From the NCBI GenBank assembly GCA_964016885.1, contig OZ024744.1, positions 71,920,001 through 71,984,000 on the forward strand: a stretch of 64,000 nucleotides of DNA, in the 5' to 3' direction. The notes below the pieces were generated by a model. That model worked only from the letters and a program-made list of their open reading frames with translations, made no database searches and was not told the DNA's origin. The DNA comes from Eledone cirrhosa. Lineage: Eukaryota. This document shows positions 34,955 to 64,000 of this stretch, piece by piece; position 1 is the stretch's first letter; every line of letters starts with the position of its first letter. Both the position numbers and the translations under genes were made by a program.

Positions 34955-35020
<66 letters not shown>
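34749..35020. repeat. Compound microsatellite (CTAT)n/(CT)n/(TA)n
   Basis: Seen directly. Confidence 0.95.
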
Positions 35021-35023
<3 letters not shown>

Positions 35024-35024
35024 A

Positions 35025-35199
35025 TTTTCGCTCTACATGACTGAATACAATAAATGTAATCTGAGTTTTTCGAATATTAATAATAACATTCGATTCATTT
35101 GCAATTATGCAAACAAACGTCATTTTAAAGCCAGTAGAATGAACCCTTCATTCTTGCTCTTGTGTTGGCATGTAAACAGAACTGCAGATTACATTTATT
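35025..35199 (-). mobile_element. Family G non-autonomous element, copy truncated at the hammerhead cleavage site
   Basis: Homologous to 37695-37863; followed by a short inverted piece and (TA)n. Confidence 0.75.
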
Positions 35200-35361
35200 A
35201 TATATAAATAAATATATATATATATATGCAGAGGTTATATTTAATTTGTTGGGATACAACAAGCTTAAACATATTTTTATACTGATATAAAGCACTCAAC
35301 AGTTATTGGAGTAAATATACAATATATTAACAAATGGAAACCATATCTATAAAACCATATT

Positions 35362-35427
35362 TATTTTATGATACATATTTCAAGGGCCACCAAGGCAAAT
35401 TATGGTGCGCTTTCATCAGATAAAATA
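35362..35427 (-). ncRNA. Type I hammerhead ribozyme (family A)
   Basis: Minus strand: tattttat CTGATGA aagcgcacc..ggtggccctt GAAA tatgta TC ataaaata; 8-bp stem I. Confidence 0.8.
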
Positions 35428-35519
35428 CAATACAGATTAGTTTTATAGGAAGCTCCAACCGTTAAGGTTGTCTTTTTTCAGGATATGTCAATATTTATTT
35501 ATAAAACTAATCTGTATTG

Positions 35520-35585
35520 TATTTTATCTGAAGAAAGCGCACCATAATTTGCCTTGGTGGCTCTTGAAATATGTATAATAAAATA
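35520..35585 (+). ncRNA. Type I hammerhead ribozyme (family A)
   Basis: tattttat CTGAAGA ... GAAA tatgta TA ataaaata. Confidence 0.78.
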
Positions 35586-35627
35586 AATATGGTTTTATAG
35601 ATATGGTTTCCATTTGTTAATATATTG

Positions 35628-35660
<33 letters not shown>

Positions 35661-37662: not shown

Positions 37663-37694
37663 TATCCAAATATATATATATAGAGAGAGAAAAT

Positions 37695-38100
37695 GTTCGC
37701 TCTACGTGGCTGAATACAATAAATGTAATCTGAGTTTTTCGAATATTAATAATAACATTCAATTTGTTCGCAATTGTGCAAATAAGCCTAATTTTCATAG
37801 CCATGTCAGTAGAATGAACTCTTCATTCTTGCTCTTGTGTTGGCATGTAAACAGAACTGCAGACACTAATGTTTCTGGGTATCACCCTTCATCAGTACAG
37901 CTCACTGTTCACCTGCCAAACTGTCAGAGCTAGTGAAGATACATGCTATTTTCTAAAATATACAGTGACTGATCGGTCTGATTTGCATATTAGCACACTG
38001 GCTGATCAGTCAGATTGTATATTAGGAGATCCATTGATCAACCAGATTTGCATGTCAGCACACTGGCCAGTCAGTTTCCCGTATACGAGCGATATTATTA
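37695..38100 (-). mobile_element. Family G non-autonomous element
   Basis: Shares 37695-37863 with 35025-35188; contains a hammerhead; right boundary approximate. Confidence 0.65.
37854..37903 (-). ncRNA. Type I hammerhead ribozyme (family G)
   Basis: Minus strand: gagctgta CTGATGA agggt gat accca GAAA ca ttag tg TC tgcagttc; 8-bp stem I with wobbles, GUC site; A-A mismatch at the base of stem II. Confidence 0.75.
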
Positions 38101-38664: not shown

Positions 38665-38807
38665 TGAAATAGCGATGTATGTTTGAATGTATGTATAGTA
38701 CATTTGATAATATATTCTATGTTTATTTAAAACATTTTGAAGACCATTCGTTATGAGTTTTAAAGTAGTTACTATGTCACTTACTTTGTCTCGGCAAAAA
38801 CAAAGGG

Positions 38808-38849
38808 AAGCAACCAACAGCTGTTTCTCGTTTGTTATCAAGATTGCTT
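38808..38849 (-). ncRNA. Minimal hammerhead variant (U3-A8 core, no stem II)
   Basis: Minus strand: aagcaatc TTGATAA caaacga GAAA cagctg TT ggttgctt; 8-bp stem I, palindromic stem III. Confidence 0.6.
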
Positions 38850-39301
38850 ATCCCCTCGCTTCTGCCGAGACTTATCAAAGCTGGATTCTTATAGAATTCC
38901 AGTGACGTTGAAGAGCTAATTAAGCAGAGCAGTTGCCGGTCCAGCAAAAATTAGAAATTAGTATCAGTGCTCTGAAATAGCGATGTATGTATGAATGTAT
39001 GAATGTATGTATAGTATATTTGATAATATACTGTATGTTTATTTAAAGACAAAGTAAGTGACATAGTCACTACTTTAAAACTCATAGCGAATGGTCTTCA
39101 AAATGTTTTTGAATAAACATACAGTATATTATCAAATATACTATATATATATACATTCATACATACATCGCTATTTCAGAGCACTGCTACTAATTTCTAA
39201 TTTTTGCTGGACCGGCAACTGCTCTGCTTAATCAGCTCTTAAACATCACTGGAATTATATAAGAATCCAGCTTCGATAAGTCTCGGCAGAAGCGAGGGGA
39301 T

Positions 39302-39343
39302 AAGCAATCTTGATAACAAACGAGAAACAGCTGTTGGGTGCTT
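39302..39343 (+). ncRNA. Minimal hammerhead variant (U3-A8 core), second copy
   Basis: aagcaatc TTGATAA caaacga GAAA cagctg TT gggtgctt. Confidence 0.55.
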
Positions 39344-39445
39344 CCCTTTGTTTCTGTCGAGACACAGTAAGTGACATAGCGAATGGTCTTCAACATGTTT
39401 TAAAATAAACATAGAGTATATTATCAAATATACTATACATACATT

Positions 39446-39719: not shown

Positions 39720-39782
<63 letters not shown>

Positions 39783-39786
<4 letters not shown>

Positions 39787-40063
39787 GAGGTTATATTTAA
39801 TTTGTTGGGATACAACAAGCTTAAAAATATTTTTATAACTGATATAAAGCAATCAACAAATTATTCGATTAAATATATAATATATTAACAAATGGAAACT
39901 ATATTTATAAAACCATATTTATTTTATTATACATATTTCAAGGGCCACCAAGGCAAGTTATAGTGCGCTTTCATCAGATAAAATACAATACAGATTAGTT
40001 TTATAAATAAATATTGACATACCCTTAAAAAAGAAAACCTTAACGGTTTGAGCTTCCTGGATA
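39783..40063 (-). mobile_element. Family A element with hammerhead at 39920-39985
   Basis: Homologous to 35227-35500; intact CTGATGA...GAAA tatgta TA; (TA)n both sides. Confidence 0.8.
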
Positions 40064-43407: not shown

Positions 43408-43555
43408 ATATATATATATATATATATATGTAGGAGGTGAGTTTTATTGCAGTACAATAAAGCAATGCAAATATCGAATAAGTAGCACTCTACAGTTTGT
43501 AGGACTGGAGTATAAATAATATATAAGATTAAAAGATGGTTAAAAGAGTTCCATG

Positions 43556-43626
43556 TATTTTATTATGCGCATTTCAAAAACAAATATCATCATGCGATGA
43601 CATTTGCGTTTTCGTCAGATAAAATA
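43556..43626 (-). ncRNA. Type I hammerhead ribozyme (family D)
   Basis: Reverse complement of 43749-43819. Confidence 0.82.
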
Positions 43627-43748
43627 GGGAGACATGATATGAAGGTTAAAAAACACTTGTGAATAGTGCAGTTTTAAATCAACATATACATGCTGATTTA
43701 AAACTGCACTATTCACAAGTGTTTTTTAACCTTCATATCATGTCTCCC

Positions 43749-43819
43749 TATTTTATCTGACGAAAACGCAAATGTCATCGCATGATGATATTTGTTTTTG
43801 AAATGCGCATAATAAAATA
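43749..43819 (+). ncRNA. Type I hammerhead ribozyme (family D)
   Basis: tattttat CTGACGA aaacgcaaatgtcatc gcat gatgatatttgttttt GAAA tgcgca TA ataaaata; palindromic stem III. Confidence 0.85.
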
Positions 43820-44074
43820 CATGGAACTCTTTTAACCATCTTTTGATCTTATATATTATATATATAAATGTATGTACACGTACATACATATATGTATACA
43901 GATGTACAGTAGTATGTATATATATATACATACATGCACACATATATATATGTAGGTATGGATTCACCGAACATTTATTATAATGCTCGGTGTGTTTGTA
44001 AACAAACATCCCGAATTAAGCCGTACAGTGTCTAGCAACCATCGTTGCTCATTTGTTCAACACTGACAAAGGAA

Positions 44075-57075: not shown

Positions 57076-57126
<51 letters not shown>

Positions 57127-57385
57127 TTGCGAGGTTTTTTATATGAAATCGTGTGTCGAAACAGATATTGTTATATTTGGGGAGGGTCATATTTGCGTAA
57201 TATTGCCAGAATTAATAACAGAACACACTCACTGTTTGGTTGGTTTTCGCTTCTCGCTGTCTTTTATATATATATATCTGCGATCTAACTTACTCGGTCC
57301 TCAATGTTGCCATTGACTGACCGGCGGTCAAAAATAATACAGATACAATATAGACAAACACATATATATATAGTTTACATAATTT

Positions 57386-57428
57386 ACATAAATCTTTCGT
57401 TGCACATCTGCAACATCGTCAGTGGTGT
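57386..57428 (-). ncRNA. pLTR hammerhead motif
   Basis: Minus strand: acacca CTGACGA t gttgca gatg tgcaac GAAA gatt TA tgt; strong stem II, weak stems I and III. Confidence 0.65.
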
Positions 57429-57694
57429 TATATTCATTGTTCCTCCTGTTGTGTTGTATGTCGGTGCCATTTTTTTTGTTCAGTCTGTCTATATATTTAT
57501 TTATTTATTTGCTTGTTTGTTTATCTTATTTTATTTTGTCTTCTTTGCGCATGCGTTTGCGTGTGTGTATAGTGTTATGTGTGATGTGTGACTAGTGTGT
57601 ATAGTGTTGTGTCTGCTAGGTGACTAGTGTGTGTTTATGTGCTTGTGTATGTATTTATTTATCTTATTTTATTTAATTTAATTTACTTATTTAT

Positions 57695-60600
57695 TTATAC
57701 TTCTCTTAGGTCAGTGTTGTTTGTTTGGGTGTTGTTGTTGTTCCACTCATTCTTTCTGTTTAGCTTTGGTCTTCTAATTTCTATTTCACTGGCCTCTCTG
57801 ATTTGCCTATCTGCTGGGTCATTCCTATGTTTAGATATTATTCTAATTTCTATGTTGTCTATGTTACCGTCATGTTGTTGTCTAGCATGTTCGTATAGTA
57901 CTGACCCGTTTTTTCGTCCTTTTAGTTCCCCCCAGTGTTGGTCTATCCTTTCACCTATGCTACGATCTGTCTCACCTATGTATGTTGTTGTCGTGTTTCT
58001 GCAAGTACCCTCTGTACATCTTATGCTATAGACTACGTTTCTAGTTTTACAGTTTATCCGGGGGTTCACCTTACATATGATACATTTCCTATTGGTACAG
58101 TGGGTTTTCTTAAAAGGGTAGGTTTTGCTGATCAGGGATTTTATGGTGGTTCCTGGCTTTTCTACCACCTTTATTTTTAAGTGGGTCTTTCTCAGGGCCT
58201 TTCTACACTGGTTAGCTAATTTCCCTCCAGGGGTGGCGTCCACAAACATGACACTCTGATATCTCTGGTTGTCGTACCATGATGTGGCCTTCCCTATCTT
58301 ATGTCTAGCCCTATCTAAGCTATTCCATGATTTGCTCCTGTATAGTGGGCAAATTCCTTTCATGTCCAGTTCTATGAGGGTCTTATACTTTTCCATGGCT
58401 CCTTCGTATACTCTGACTCTGTCTCTTTGGTTGTAGCCAGAGAACTGCATGCGGTTGATGAAGTGTTGGATGTGTCCTTCCATTTCTGTTGGGTCGCACA
58501 TGCTGGACACATTCTTCATCACTCGTACCAAATCTGCGATCAGAATATTAAACTTAGCACTACTGGACATTGCTGAGTTTTTGAGTATCAGGTATTTGGA
58601 GGCCATGGGTTTAGCATAGTGTGAGTGGAGAATTTGGGCTCTCTCGTCTATAGTGTTAATCCAGAGTTCTGTGTCTAATACAGGTAGTCTATTGTTAGGG
58701 TGTTTGGAAGGGAAGTCTATAGTTACAGTTATACTCTGGTGTATGGAATTAGCTATCTGCTGGATGCTTTCCATCGTGCTACGTTCTAAATCAAACTTGT
58801 TAGTGCTCTCTAGTGGGGGTGTTCTTATAACTATATTGATATCGTCTACATAACGAGAGTACATGATGAGGTCTATGGAGCTTTCATTAAGGAGATCTTT
58901 AAGTCTCCTTTCCCACCATACCATGAAAAGGTTGGCAACATCACCAGCTATGCTGACGCCGATGGCTGCTCCCTCATTTTGGGTGTAGATTTTCTCATTG
59001 AACTTAAATATGTGGCCCTTTAGGGTAGTTTTGATACTAGCCCCTATTGCATGTGCGACCATTTTTCTTACCTGATCAGTGTTTTGGGGGGTCCGTATAG
59101 CTTTGGTCCACCCAATCCACCTTCCTATGGGAGTCTTTTTAGCCATTGAGGTTATGGTGGGGGGTCTACCTCTTATAGGTCTACTAGGGCAGAAACATCT
59201 AAGGTCATGGCTGTCTAGGTAGTCAGTGTCGTAGGTAAGTCTAAGTAGGAGGCCCAGTTCGTCTGTGTCGACGTCGCAGAACTCCACCTCACTCTCAATG
59301 ATCATCTCCACACATCTTTTCACAGCAAAATCAATGTTAATGGATGGGTACAGTGACACCACATCCATGCTGCCTATTATGCAGTTGGATAGGTTCCTGT
59401 TTTTGTTGCACTCACTGATTCTGCTGAGGAGGTCCTCTGTACTTTCACATACATCTGGGGACATCTTGATTATGGGGCGTATAACCATTGAGAGGAAGTA
59501 GGAGATCCTGTAGTTGCTAGCTATATTAGCTCCGCATACGGGTCTTGTTGGTGGTCCTGTTGTCGGGTCGTCGACTGTCTTGTGGTCTTTGCGGAGCCCA
59601 TACAAGGGTGGTATGCCATTGTTAGACGCCTGGAAGTTGTTGGCAGTGCGTCTGCTTGGCTTTAGGATGTCAGTCCACATCATCATGTGAGCGTTGAGGA
59701 TTTTTTCTCTCCCATCGTGTGTTAGTTGTGCAACTTCGCTCGTGTTGGTGATGTGGGGTTGCATTGCCTCGATGTAGTTCGGCATGATATCTATTGACAT
59801 CCTACCGGACTTATCTGTGGGTAGACACACTACCTCACCATCCCTTGTGCGCTGCTTGAGGCTAACCAAGCCTTCTACAGGTTTTATCCCAAGTTGTTGG
59901 GCCTCTGGTCTGCTCTGTCTCATAGTGTACCTGTCTACTACTTGTCTAATCTTATTTCTAGCTATGGTGAACTGTGCCTCCGTCTCGTCATCTATTTGCT
60001 GTGGTATGCAAACTCTTTTATTAAAGGGTAACCTCGTAGGATAGATATTACCCATCTTATATGTTTTGTCAGCTGGGTTGAAAAATAGTTTCTCTAAGGG
60101 GTTGTCGTTATTTCTATCGTCATAGTTGTGTGTGTTGCTATTATTGTTATCATGGTGGTTGTTGTTGTTTCTATCATTAGCATTAATATTATTATTGTTA
60201 TGATTGCTAGATGTATTGTTGTTTACTTCACCGTTATTGTTGTTGTTGTTACTGCTATTTCTACCATTGTGGTTGTTACTATTATTATGTTTCTTGTTTT
60301 TGTTGATGTTGCTACATGTACTATTTCCATTATTACCACTGTGGTTATTGTTGTTGTTGTTGTTCGTATTGTTACCGTTATTACTACTGTGGTCACTGTT
60401 GCTGTGTCTGTGGTTAACGTTTCTATTATTATTATTATTGTGGTTGTTGTTGTTCTGTCTATCGCTAGTATTATTACCATTATCACTATTTCTCACTTTC
60501 CTGCCATTGTTATGGTTATGGCTGTTATTTCTATACCCAGAGTTATTGTTTATATTACTACTACCGTTATTATTGTTGTTGTTGTTTACCTTTGCATTCC

Positions 60601-61327
60601 AACGTATTTTTGTGAAACACTTTTCCAGCTCCGTTTTGCATTCCATAGGGTTAATCTTTTTGTAGATGGCAAATTTTGGTGGTAACTTTAGGATTTGTTG
60701 TTCTTGTTCACTGATTAAAGTGTTCCCATAGATATTTACTGTGTGGTCATTGGTAAATTCTTCCGGTAGTTTTACATCACTCATACGGATGTTGTCGATG
60801 TTATCTGGGTATTTTTGAGAATATTCGATTTTCCTTTCTTGTAGTTTTTTCTTATTCATCCATTCTAATTTCTTCTTGAAATGCCTACAGCATTCGTTTT
60901 GAGCATATTTCGTTTCGCGTCGGATGACGCTCATGAAGTCATCTCTCTCGTTTGCTGTGATGAGATTTCGGATTTCCTTACCGTTGATGCGTTTTTGTCT
61001 GTAGAGTGCGTTGACTTTTGTGTATGTTGTTCTTTTCATATTAACTGTTATTGTGTGTTTTAGCCGTTCAGCTTGTGTTTTGTTCAATAATAAATTATTT
61101 ACTTGTTTTAATATGTTTGTTGTGTATGTTTTGGAGGAAACACAGTGTTTTAAGAAGCGGATTTGTTCTGTTGTTATTGTAGTTTTTATATAACAGAAAA
61201 CAGTGTCTTTCAATAACCTTTCAGCTTGGCACAAGCTAATGCCATAGCGGCGATGAATTAGTTTTGCGAGGTTTTTTATATGAAATCGTGTGTCGAAACA
61301 GATATTGTTATATTTGGGGAGGGTCAT
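57695..61327 (-). CDS. Penelope-like RT + GIY-YIG endonuclease polyprotein, intact, 1210 aa
   Basis: TDKSG, LYGLRKDHK, TRPV, MDVVSLYPSI, GAAIG, RYVDD, LPVLD, Cys-rich linker, VVYSIRC...YIGETDRS..ER..QH, REA..I..P.LN; Asn-rich insert in the N-terminal region. Confidence 0.95.
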   Translation of the reverse strand: MTLPKYNNICFDTRFHIKNLAKLIHRRYGISLCQAERLLKDTVFCYIKTTITTEQIRFLKHCVSSKTYTTNILKQVNNLLLNKTQAERLKHTITVNMKRTTYTKVNALYRQKRINGKEIRNLITANERDDFMSVIRRETKYAQNECCRHFKKKLEWMNKKKLQERKIEYSQKYPDNIDNIRMSDVKLPEEFTNDHTVNIYGNTLISEQEQQILKLPPKFAIYKKINPMECKTELEKCFTKIRWNAKVNNNNNNNGSSNINNNSGYRNNSHNHNNGRKVRNSDNGNNTSDRQNNNNHNNNNNRNVNHRHSNSDHSSNNGNNTNNNNNNNHSGNNGNSTCSNINKNKKHNNSNNHNGRNSSNNNNNNGEVNNNTSSNHNNNNINANDRNNNNHHDNNNSNTHNYDDRNNDNPLEKLFFNPADKTYKMGNIYPTRLPFNKRVCIPQQIDDETEAQFTIARNKIRQVVDRYTMRQSRPEAQQLGIKPVEGLVSLKQRTRDGEVVCLPTDKSGRMSIDIMPNYIEAMQPHITNTSEVAQLTHDGREKILNAHMMMWTDILKPSRRTANNFQASNNGIPPLYGLRKDHKTVDDPTTGPPTRPVCGANIASNYRISYFLSMVIRPIIKMSPDVCESTEDLLSRISECNKNRNLSNCIIGSMDVVSLYPSINIDFAVKRCVEMIIESEVEFCDVDTDELGLLLRLTYDTDYLDSHDLRCFCPSRPIRGRPPTITSMAKKTPIGRWIGWTKAIRTPQNTDQVRKMVAHAIGASIKTTLKGHIFKFNEKIYTQNEGAAIGVSIAGDVANLFMVWWERRLKDLLNESSIDLIMYSRYVDDINIVIRTPPLESTNKFDLERSTMESIQQIANSIHQSITVTIDFPSKHPNNRLPVLDTELWINTIDERAQILHSHYAKPMASKYLILKNSAMSSSAKFNILIADLVRVMKNVSSMCDPTEMEGHIQHFINRMQFSGYNQRDRVRVYEGAMEKYKTLIELDMKGICPLYRSKSWNSLDRARHKIGKATSWYDNQRYQSVMFVDATPGGKLANQCRKALRKTHLKIKVVEKPGTTIKSLISKTYPFKKTHCTNRKCIICKVNPRINCKTRNVVYSIRCTEGTCRNTTTTYIGETDRSIGERIDQHWGELKGRKNGSVLYEHARQQHDGNIDNIEIRIISKHRNDPADRQIREASEIEIRRPKLNRKNEWNNNNTQTNNTDLREV

Positions 61328-61522
61328 ATTTGCGTAATATTGCCAGAATTAATAACAGAACACACTCACTGTTTGGTTGGTTTTCGCTTCTCGCTGTCTT
61401 TTATATATATATATCTGCGATCTAACTTACTCGGTCCTCAATGTTGCCATTGACTGACCGGCGGTCAAAAATAATACAGATACAATATAGACAAACACAT
61501 ATATATATAGTTTACATAATTT

Positions 61523-61565
61523 ACATAAATCTTTCGTTGCACATCTGCAACATCGTCAGTGGTGT
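61523..61565 (-). ncRNA. pLTR hammerhead motif (upstream copy)
   Basis: Identical to 57386-57428. Confidence 0.65.
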
Positions 61566-62315
61566 TATATTCATTGTTCCTCCTGTTGTGTTGTATGTCT
61601 ACGCCATTTTTTTTGTTCAGTCTGTCTATATATTTATTTATTTATTTGCTTGTTTGTTTATCTTATTTTATTTTGTCTTCTTTGCGCATGCGTTTGCGTG
61701 TGTGTATAGTGTTATGTGTGATGTGTGACTAGTGTGTATAGTGTTGTGTCTGCTGGGTGACTAGTGTGTGTTTATGTGCTTGTGTATGTATTTATTTATC
61801 TTATTTTATTTTATTTAATTTACTTATTTATTTATACTTCTCTTAGGTCAGTGTTGTTTGTTTGGGTGTTGTTGTTGTTCCACTCATTCTTTCTGTTTAG
61901 CTTTGGTCTTCTAATTTCTATTTCACTGGCCTCTCTGATTTGCCTATCTGCTGGGTCATTCCTATGTTTAGATATTATTCTAATTTCTATGTTGTCTATG
62001 TTACCGTCATGTTGTTGTCTAGCATGTTCGTATAGTACTGACCCGTTTTTTCGTCCTTTTAGTTCCCCCCAGTGTTGGTCTATCCTTTCACCTATGCTAC
62101 GATCTGTCTCACCTATGTATGTTGTTGTCGTGTTTCTGCAAGTACCCTCTGTACATCTTATGCTATAGACTACGTTTCTAGTTTTACAGTTTATCCGGGG
62201 GTTCACCTTACATATGATACATTTCCTATTGGTACAGTGGGTTTTCTTAAAAGGGTAGGTTTGGCTGATCAGAGATTTTATGGTGGTTCCTGGCTTTTCT
62301 ACCACCTTTATTTAT

Positions 62316-64000
62316 AAAAACGGGTCAGTACTATACGAACATGCTAGACAACAACATGGCGGTAACATAGACAACATAGAAATTAGAATAATATCTAAAC
62401 ATAGGAATGACCCAGCAGATAGGCAAATCAGAGAGGCCAGTGAAATAGAAATTAGAAGACCAAAGCTAAACAGAAAGAATGAGTGGAACAACAACAACAC
62501 CCAAACAAACAACACTGACCTAAGAGAAGTATAAATAAATAAGTAAATTAAATAAAATAAAATAAGATAAATAAATACATACACAAGCACATAAACACAC
62601 ACTAGTCACCCAGCAGACACAACACTATACACACTAGTCACACATCACACATAACACTAAACACACACGCAAACGCATGCGCAAAGAAGACAAAATAAAA
62701 TAAGATAAACAAACAAGCAAATAAATAAATAAATATATATACAGACTGAACAAAAAAAATGGCGTAGACATACAACACAACAGGAGGAACAATGAATATA
62801 ACACCACTGACGATGTTGCAGATGTGCAACGAAAGATTTATGTAAATTATGTAAACTATATATATATGTGTTTGTCTATATTGTATCTGTATTATTTTTG
62901 ACCGCCGGTCAGTCAATGGCAACATTGAGGACCGAGTAAGTTAGATCGCAGATATATATATATAAAAGACAGCGAGAAGCGAAAACCAACCAAACAGTGA
63001 GTGTGTTCTGTTATTAATTCTGGCAATATTACGCAAATATGACCCTCCCCAAATATAACAATATCTGTTTCGACACACGATTTCATATAAAAAACCTCGC
63101 AAAACTAATTCATCGCCGCTATGGCATTAGCTTGTGCCAAGCTGAAAGGTTATTGAAAGACACTGTTTTCTGTTATATAAAAACTACAATAACAACAGAA
63201 CAAATCCGCTTCTTAAAACACTGTGTTTCCTCCAAAACATACACAACAAACATATCAAAACAAGTAAATAATTTATTATTGAACAAAACACAAGCTGAAC
63301 GGCTAAAACACACAATAACAGTTAATATGAAAAGAACAACATACACAAAAGTCAACGCACTCTACAGACAAAAACGCATCAACGGTAAGGAAATCCGAAA
63401 TCTCATCACAGCAAACGAGAGAGATGACTTCATGAGCGTCATCCGACGCGAAACGAAATATGCTCAAAACGAATGCTGTAGGCATTTCAAGAAGAAATTA
63501 GAATGGATGAATAAGAAAAAACTACAAGAAAGGAAAATCGAATATTCTCAAAAATACCCAGATAACATCGACAACATCCGTATGAGTGATGTAAAACTAC
63601 CGGAAGAATTTACCAATGACCACACAGTAAATATCTATGGGAACACTTTAATCAGTGAACAAGAACAACAAATCCTAAAGTTACCACCAAAATTTGCCAT
63701 CTACAAAAAGATTAACCCTATGGAATGCAAAACGGAGCTGGAAAAGTGTTTCACAAAAATACGTTGGAATGCAAAGGTAAACAACAACAACAATAATAAC
63801 GGTAGTAGTAATATAAACAATAACTCTGGGTATAGAAATAACAGCCATAACCATAACAATGGCAGGAAAGTGAGAAATAGTGATAATGGTAATAATACTA
63901 GCGATAGACAGAACAACAACAACCACAATAATAATAATAATAGAAACGTTAACCACAGACACAGCAACAGTGACCACAGTAGTAATAACGGTAACAATAC
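62316..64000 (+). mobile_element. Inverted second copy of the same PLE (runs off window end)
   Basis: Reverse complement of about 60367-62051; hammerhead at 62801-62843. Confidence 0.93.
63039..64000 (+). CDS. 5' part of a second PLE polyprotein (MTLPKYNNICF...), open to the window end
   Basis: ATG at 63039; sequence mirrors 61327 downward. Not in the ORF track because there is no stop before the end. Confidence 0.88.
   Translation, partial: MTLPKYNNICFDTRFHIKNLAKLIHRRYGISLCQAERLLKDTVFCYIKTTITTEQIRFLKHCVSSKTYTTNISKQVNNLLLNKTQAERLKHTITVNMKRTTYTKVNALYRQKRINGKEIRNLITANERDDFMSVIRRETKYAQNECCRHFKKKLEWMNKKKLQERKIEYSQKYPDNIDNIRMSDVKLPEEFTNDHTVNIYGNTLISEQEQQILKLPPKFAIYKKINPMECKTELEKCFTKIRWNAKVNNNNNNNGSSNINNNSGYRNNSHNHNNGRKVRNSDNGNNTSDRQNNNNHNNNNNRNVNHRHSNSDHSSNNGNN

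Follow-up and report, generated by a model that had tools for sequence, protein, structure and literature searches.

Does an insertion in an octopus genome end where a ribozyme carried by the same repeat would have cut its RNA, and, if so, was a self-cleaved RNA its template? The question is raised by two copies of one repeat, here called copy A and copy B, in a 64,000-nucleotide stretch of the Eledone cirrhosa genome (contig OZ024744.1; hereafter the window). The original prediction was that copy B stops at the cleavage site of the hammerhead found in copy A because its template had cut itself, and that the short inverted piece at the same end was added by twin priming.

The insertion and the predicted hammerhead

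The features on which the argument turns are listed below. Positions are counted from the predicted cut, with 0 for the base immediately 3' of it (window position 37861 for copy A and 35186 for copy B); negative positions lie towards the RNA 3' end and positive positions upstream of the cut.

37695..38094, minus strand: copy A, a near-full unit of the repeat that reads through the hammerhead to +233 (locus L281)
37862..37895, minus strand: predicted hammerhead core, stem II and short self-complementary stem III of copy A; predicted cut 37862/37861
37840..37919, minus strand: extended stem I of copy A from folding; 3' strand 0 to -21, 5' strand +35 to +58
34956..35021, no strand: left (TA)n target tract, read from the sequence
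35022..35188, minus strand: long arm of copy B, a putative retrozyme piece that starts, tail included, at the distal priming site and ends at +2; 87% identity to copy A, break at +2 (locus L311)
35022..35048, minus strand: optional tail of about 25 nt between the fixed 3' ends at about -166 and about -142; two 3'-end classes in 91 arms and 160 arm pairs
35185..35199, plus strand: short inverted arm of 15 nt; its end lies at the proximal priming site, the dominant one, and matches the -142 class, and its sequence is the exact reverse complement of 35049-35063
35185..35188, no strand: head-to-head junction microhomology of 4 nt, spanning the cut-equivalent bond 35186/35187 in the sequence
35200..35227, no strand: right (AT)n target tract, read from the sequence

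The minus-strand hammerhead was located in copy A as predicted. It is of the minimal type I kind, with its core at 37895-37862 and a predicted cut GUC|U between 37862 and 37861; an Rfam scan of the window at gathering thresholds returned no matches, hammerhead included. Fold prediction gives an extended stem I of 22 bp and a stem II of 4 bp, while stem III (+2 to +11) lacks a monomer fold and pairs with itself in a dimer (-8.8 kcal/mol). The 400-nt unit folds with a z-score of -5.4, and the catalytic fold is predicted to lie 6.2 kcal/mol above an alternative fold. After the G-C pair G10.1-C11.1, an extra A at +15 separates stem II from GAAA, ahead of G12, throughout the family, and another extra A at +27 lies between A9 and 10.1, as in minimal PLE-type hammerheads. 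The core has no common variant among 91 arms. Most copies place A opposite A at the base of stem II; a variant in the second arm at locus L023 and in locus L149 restores a U-A pair there, and may represent an older, more canonical hammerhead. Covariation in stem I was considered as proof of selection and set aside: the three common stem alleles, which by eye keep pairing, are weak evidence because two of them are G-U pairs, where any transition keeps pairing.

Copy B is a head-to-head, two-armed insertion of a non-coding, hammerhead-bearing repeat of about 436 bp. Its long arm aligns to copy A at 87% identity (35001-35188 against 37670-37863) and starts at the distal site. The cut-equivalent position falls after 35186, and the alignment persists for two more nucleotides, to 35188. 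From there, through a 4-nt CAGA overlap at 35185-35188, the sequence passes into 35185-35199, the exact reverse complement of 35049-35063 in copy B and of 37718-37732 in copy A, and then into (AT)n. The inverted piece ends at about -143, the dominant start site. A target-site duplication is unreadable at the left (TA)n tract. The sequence thus agrees with the earlier description of the homology end at 35186-35188 and the CAGA switch to an inverted 15-mer of the same element; the end lies within 2 nt of the predicted cut and is not demonstrably at it, since it reads to +2.

The repeat family

In this 3.0-Gb genome a single 18-base anchor from the family returned 3,330 matches, and the arms number in the thousands. 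Units of about 436 bp stand in head-to-tail tandems (at L051 the tail motif repeats 436 nt apart), 30 of 47 long arms continue into a further unit, and the copies are mostly inserted in (TA)n. Two fixed 3' ends lie about 25 nt apart, near -142 and -166, in both the 91 arms and the 160 arm pairs, and an inverted arm continues 110 of 181 ended arms. Open frames across the unit, judged by eye from the frame list, are without sense starts and extend through (TA)n; the unit encodes no protein, because 436 bp is too small for a reverse transcriptase (RT). By its tandem unit, type I hammerhead and non-coding nature the family fits the description of a non-LTR retrozyme, as far as sequence can tell. 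Its insertions bear Penelope-type marks, namely an inverted 5'-truncated arm and an optional tail from two RT start sites.

As a candidate autonomous partner, one coding family (19 loci) was compared and had no terminal sequence in common with the unit. Locus L057 (1597-2520) holds a family arm that stops at +63 and there abuts, head-to-head, a coding Penelope-like element of which a truncated 3' part is present; a template switch may have made the junction. The coding element has an RT-type YIDD motif and a weak GIY-YIG match (E = 0.0013, below the Pfam cut-off); it was rejected as the partner since it shares no terminal sequence with the unit. In a composite subfamily (L047, L085, L392 and L139; 9 of 91 arms) an extra piece, which we take to be SINE-like, adjoins the unit at one recurrent breakpoint, near -108, and apparently moved together with it. 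At L032 the arm switches at a -4 junction to a different hammerhead-bearing repeat. Within the unit, +105 to +210 (37966-38071 in copy A) consists of internal palindromic sub-repeats of about 33 bp in variable copy number.

Several other elements share the window. Adjoining copy B, 35228-35640 (sister at 39745-40058) is another head-to-head insertion, with hammerhead-like first-half cores at 35419 (minus strand) and 35528 (plus strand), and other families contribute more inverted-arm insertions and hammerhead-like motifs at 38772-39379, 43511-43864, 57422, 61559 and 62807. A perfect inverted repeat of 1,685 bp (60366-62050 and 62316-64000, 265-bp spacer) runs off the window and has a partial third copy at 57124-57913, and a 34-bp minisatellite of about 45 copies extends from 24349 to about 26100.

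Sampling and breakpoint calls

We defined a break as the last position of homology, a measure that shifts calls upward because microhomology and chance matches extend homology. Breakpoints were called against natural copies, with no family-wide ambiguity reference, and rare alleles may therefore shift single calls by a few nucleotides. A one-allele anchor had 1,137 matches; the first 100 were taken, and 90 of these yielded the 91 arms of the first sample. Of these arms, none broke at 0, nine broke in -7 to +2, and the others were spread to +233. A genome-wide break filter then gave 124 matches on 1,671 anchors for the cut window (-7 to +7) and 208 on 3,330 for a 3' control window (-23 to -9). 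Among the matches listed for the cut window, 92 of 124 were classified after exclusion of five evident small indels and three duplicates; for the control window the first 71 of 208 were classified. Landings scored as same-strand or inverted beyond -130 proved to be (TA)n flanks and were counted as plain ends. Three smaller sets were also read: the places on contig 1, taken consecutively up to the 60th (24 end in -22 to +2, four of them exactly at 0, and none in +3 to +20), 58 copies chosen by their 3' part (21 end in -24 to +2; these are top-ranked copies only, with ranking bias possible) and 29 copies of a second allele (4 end in -7 to +2). The pool analysed below holds 228 arms, with 90 arms of the one-allele first sample kept in.

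5' ends and the predicted cut

Truncation points of the family, which had been expected to peak at the GUC site, are indeed non-uniform and have an edge at the cut; they form a plateau, with no single-base spike, position 0 holding 6 of 164 arms (p = 0.09 against the plateau). In the pool, 57 ends fall in 3,223 exposed nucleotides at -24 to +2 and 123 in 24,235 elsewhere, a 3.5-fold excess (p = 1e-12). Ends per 100 exposed nucleotides rise from 0.61 (-76 to -50) and 0.62 (-49 to -25) to 1.40 (-24 to -9) and 2.06 (-8 to +2), and upstream return to 0.54 (+3 to +13), 0.34 (+14 to +45) and 0.4-0.6 beyond. The left edge of this zone was picked post hoc, whereas the step at 0 was a prior prediction, and it is marked: 48 ends in 2,468 nt at -19 to 0 against 14 in 2,981 nt at +1 to +20 (p = 2.5e-7). 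Among 250 positions the best step is at +2 (p = 8e-9), followed by +3, +1, +4 and 0, and the best unrelated step reaches p = 0.007. The excess holds at 3.2- to 3.8-fold with one arm per locus, with unique junctions or without near fold-backs, and at 3.5- and 4.5-fold in the two allele-unselected sets taken separately. It amounts to 28% of the arms that reach the zone in the pool and 35% in the unselected sets, the remainder reading through. Of 12 arms that reach the zone in a second unit, 6 end there, a count that partly overlaps the other sets.

The filtered genome-wide set shows the same asymmetry, with 50 true ends at -7 to 0 and 18 at +1 to +7 (p = 5e-4), 5 of the 50 being second arms of fold-back junctions. 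By the filtered counts the control window is as dense overall as the cut window (208/3,330 versus 124/1,671), and its single positions are as high as position 0: classified breaks number 9 at 0 and 10 at -2, against 10 at -16 and 9 at -15 in the control window. The one-allele sample of 90 arms has no step (7 ends in 796 nt versus 10 in 1,543 nt, p = 0.35), and 0 of 91 arms end exactly at the cut; taken alone, its seemingly uniform ends would have contradicted the original prediction. The sample is biased to the allele with the weakest signal, and it counts here as contrary evidence.

The excess is unevenly distributed among kinds of end. Inversion ends are 5.5 times denser in the zone than outside, and plain, non-inverted ends 2.0 times (p = 0.02; step p = 0.08). 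It is carried by the longer arm of inversions (33 events, 1.02% per nt versus 0.08-0.25 elsewhere), as it should be if the two arms had a common RNA end. Two junction-based causes were considered and rejected. Microhomology of at least 3 nt is present in 12 of 43 zone inversions and 13 of 67 others, and its availability is flat along the unit; annealing of cDNA to cDNA through stem I is at odds with there being 1 zone landing in 43 near +35 to +65 and no mirror pile-up at +32 to +55.

The main rival to cleavage is that the RNA was left uncut and that the RT stalled as it opened the 22-bp extended stem I. Such stalling would also place the edge at the cut, because the cut of a type I hammerhead sits atop stem I, and the zone from -24 to 0 does coincide with the 3' strand of that stem. 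A plateau rather than a spike suits stalling as well. Alleles differ in the same sense: of those with TA at -13/-12, 11 of 106 end at -7 to +2, compared with 21 of 79 for the other alleles (p = 0.006), most of which replace a G-U pair in stem I by a G-C pair; this effect fits both cleavage and stalling. Three observations nevertheless speak against stalling. Hairpins of similar opening energy at -40 to -29 and +128 to +151 show 0.3-0.4% per nt and no pile-up, the rate climbs towards the top of the stem (1.4 then 2.1% per nt), where little stem remains to open, and the lowest-energy fold keeps pairing as far as +10, yet the edge is at +2. We consider stalling unlikely as the source of the pile-up. 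Dispersed transcription starts, or trimming by host nucleases near the cut, would account for a plateau of about 25 nt with no ribozyme action at all. They would have to place an edge no more than 2 nt from the predicted cut in a 436-nt unit, a coincidence of about 1% by our estimate, and the edge seems to recur in the second tandem unit; this explanation appears less probable still than stalling. Self-cleavage of the RNA at GUC is the likely reading of the genomic 5'-end edge.

Origin of the inverted arm

In L1 twin priming the inverted arm derives from RNA upstream of the first arm and is primed at a variable internal site. Copy B differs on both counts: its inverted arm duplicates 35049-35063, a 3'-part sequence, and ends at the fixed main priming site of the family, so that twin priming of the L1 type does not describe it. 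Arm pairs across the family speak to the same point. We examined 160 full arm pairs, of which 107 were classifiable and 53 had an unclassifiable end. Start sites differed between the arms in 91 of the 107, were both distal in 14 and both proximal in 2, and in 57 the short arm bears a tail that the long arm lacks. Snap-back of a first cDNA onto itself cannot yield a tail that its own template arm is without, and simple snap-back is therefore excluded by these 57 pairs. Near fold-back junctions do occur (15 of 57 zone ends), and alleles are common to both arms, as snap-back or L1-type twin priming would have it. Against L1-type priming, the outer ends lie at two fixed sites and not at arbitrary internal ones, and a cut RNA would have no upstream part to twin-prime on. 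For the family both mechanisms are largely refuted, and we regard either as a highly improbable source of the inverted piece. The arm pairs are best read as products of Penelope-type two-site priming, not of L1 twin priming.

The two arms share diagnostic alleles at three sites in 113 of 118, 88 of 91 and 94 of 97 pairs (96-97%), against 51-67% expected; sharing is 81-87% at four other sites, some of them in mutable CpG context, and 8 of 11 at one further site. This suggests that both target strands were primed on one RNA or on sister RNAs.

A model for the family and the place of copy B

Our preferred reading, to which we lend somewhat better than even credence, is that a Penelope-type machinery pastes in these repeats and that 5' ends pile up against the predicted ribozyme cut since about a third of the template RNAs would have cut themselves. 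Against it weigh the missing single-base spike, the stepless one-allele sample, the modest excess among plain ends, the density of the 3' control window, the overlap of the zone with stem I, the more stable alternative fold, the extra A before GAAA, the behaviour of Anolis Poseidon RNA in vitro (PMC11167929) and the lack of terminal sequence in common with the coding family compared. Both target strands would be nicked, and each would prime cDNA synthesis at one of two neighbouring sites, with a single RNA or sister RNAs as template. On a cut linear RNA, copying would be limited to the 142-166 nt between the start sites and the 5' end; because no more than this is on offer, both arms would be bounded by 0 and the longer one would pile up there. 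The longer cDNA may halt at the RNA end or lose up to about 25 nt, trimming before joining producing the plateau-like smear, and would then be joined to the second cDNA by way of microhomology or with a few untemplated bases added. Read-through copies and tandems would come from multimers or circles left uncut. Many arms do read through the cut, and cutting is therefore optional rather than required.

Copy B suits the cut-RNA model, with its tailed long arm and 15-nt short arm. Its junction is ambiguous because homology goes 2 nt past the cut through the 4-nt microhomology: a cDNA ending at 0 and joined by a 2-nt overlap leaves the same letters as one ending at +2 and joined by a 4-nt overlap. 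At the level of the family, the claim of self-cleaved templates gains from the density of ends and the drop at the cut; copy B itself may equally come from uncut RNA, read 2 nt past the cut and joined through the full microhomology, a background event compatible with the family signal. That homology reaches +2 favours such an event, as does the arrival at the same landing site from -16 (L260, L263), -6 (L351) and +162 (L092), and microhomology of at least 3 nt is found in 25 of 110 pooled inversions. With a background of about 0.5% ends per nt, a chance end within a few nucleotides of the cut is not rare for any one copy. On the other side stand the identical letters that a cDNA ending at 0 would give by a 2-nt overlap at this recurrent landing site, and the 5.5-fold density of inversion ends in the zone. 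We rate the background event in copy B an even prospect, and descent of copy B from cut RNA slightly short of even, within a rough range that runs from unlikely to modestly probable. Copy B is one ambiguous member of a real family-wide signal.

If the model is true, the family-wide edge means that cut RNA is integrated in vivo, in about one third of events, and would allow ribozyme activity to be assayed in different families and alleles from sequence alone. A broader proposal, which we hold to be evenly balanced, is that the Penelope machinery integrates ribozyme-cut linear retrozyme RNA in the germ line, with two-strand priming 25 nt apart and the cut end capping the longer arm, such that the positions of 5' ends across the genome would be a fossil record of hammerhead activity in vivo, which stem I alleles could tune (27% versus 10% ending at -7 to +2).

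Comparison with known systems

Metazoan non-LTR retrozymes resemble the present family: their AT-rich non-coding units measure a few hundred bp, each with a single type I hammerhead, they form tandems and number thousands of copies, and Penelope-like elements are their proposed movers (PMC7229834; bioRxiv 10.64898/2026.07.22.740005). They differ in that the insertions here are mostly short, truncated and two-armed, not arrays, and the published model stresses circular templates, whereas about a third of the arms here seem to stop at the cut end of a linear RNA. That animal retrozymes process themselves in vivo was known already (PMC7229834). We found no 5'-end histogram in the accessible portions of those two sources, nor a published 5'-end analysis of this kind in the openly accessible literature.

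Endonuclease-bearing Penelope-like insertions likewise show 5' truncation, partial tandems, an adjacent inverted 5'-truncated copy, an optional tail at one end and microsatellite targets (PMC8557442; PMC3846280). The unit studied here, by contrast, has no open reading frame, and its tail is about 25 nt rather than 30-40 (PMC8557442; PMC3846280). The function of the hammerhead in Penelope-like elements has been termed unclear (Craig et al. 2021, PMC8557442). Anolis Poseidon in vitro nicks and extends both target strands at AT-rich targets, as we suppose here (Frangieh et al. 2024, PMC11167929), and two adjacent internal RT start sites delimit its tail (PMC11167929). In that in vitro system RNA served as template mainly in its uncut form, none of the RNA-seq reads had an end at the cut, and cleavage proved dispensable (PMC11167929). 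Optional cleavage in the present family is in line with that system (PMC11167929); the two differ in that no Poseidon reads end at the cut, whereas genomic 5' ends of the octopus family show an edge there.

Minimal PLE hammerheads share with the one described here an extra base after A9 and a short palindromic stem III, predicted to need a dimer, with low activity expected (Cervera & de la Pena 2014, PMC4209133); the additional A between stem II and GAAA and the very long 22-bp stem I set the present hammerhead apart. A precedent for a ribozyme cut that sets the 5' junction of insertions is the HDV-like ribozyme of the R2 retrotransposon (PMC3774820). The match is exact in Drosophila R2, where it belongs to the normal cycle (PMC3774820); in the present family it is partial, spread over about 25 nt and not needed. 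Compared with these systems, the new part would be a cut linear RNA serving as template together with two-site priming.
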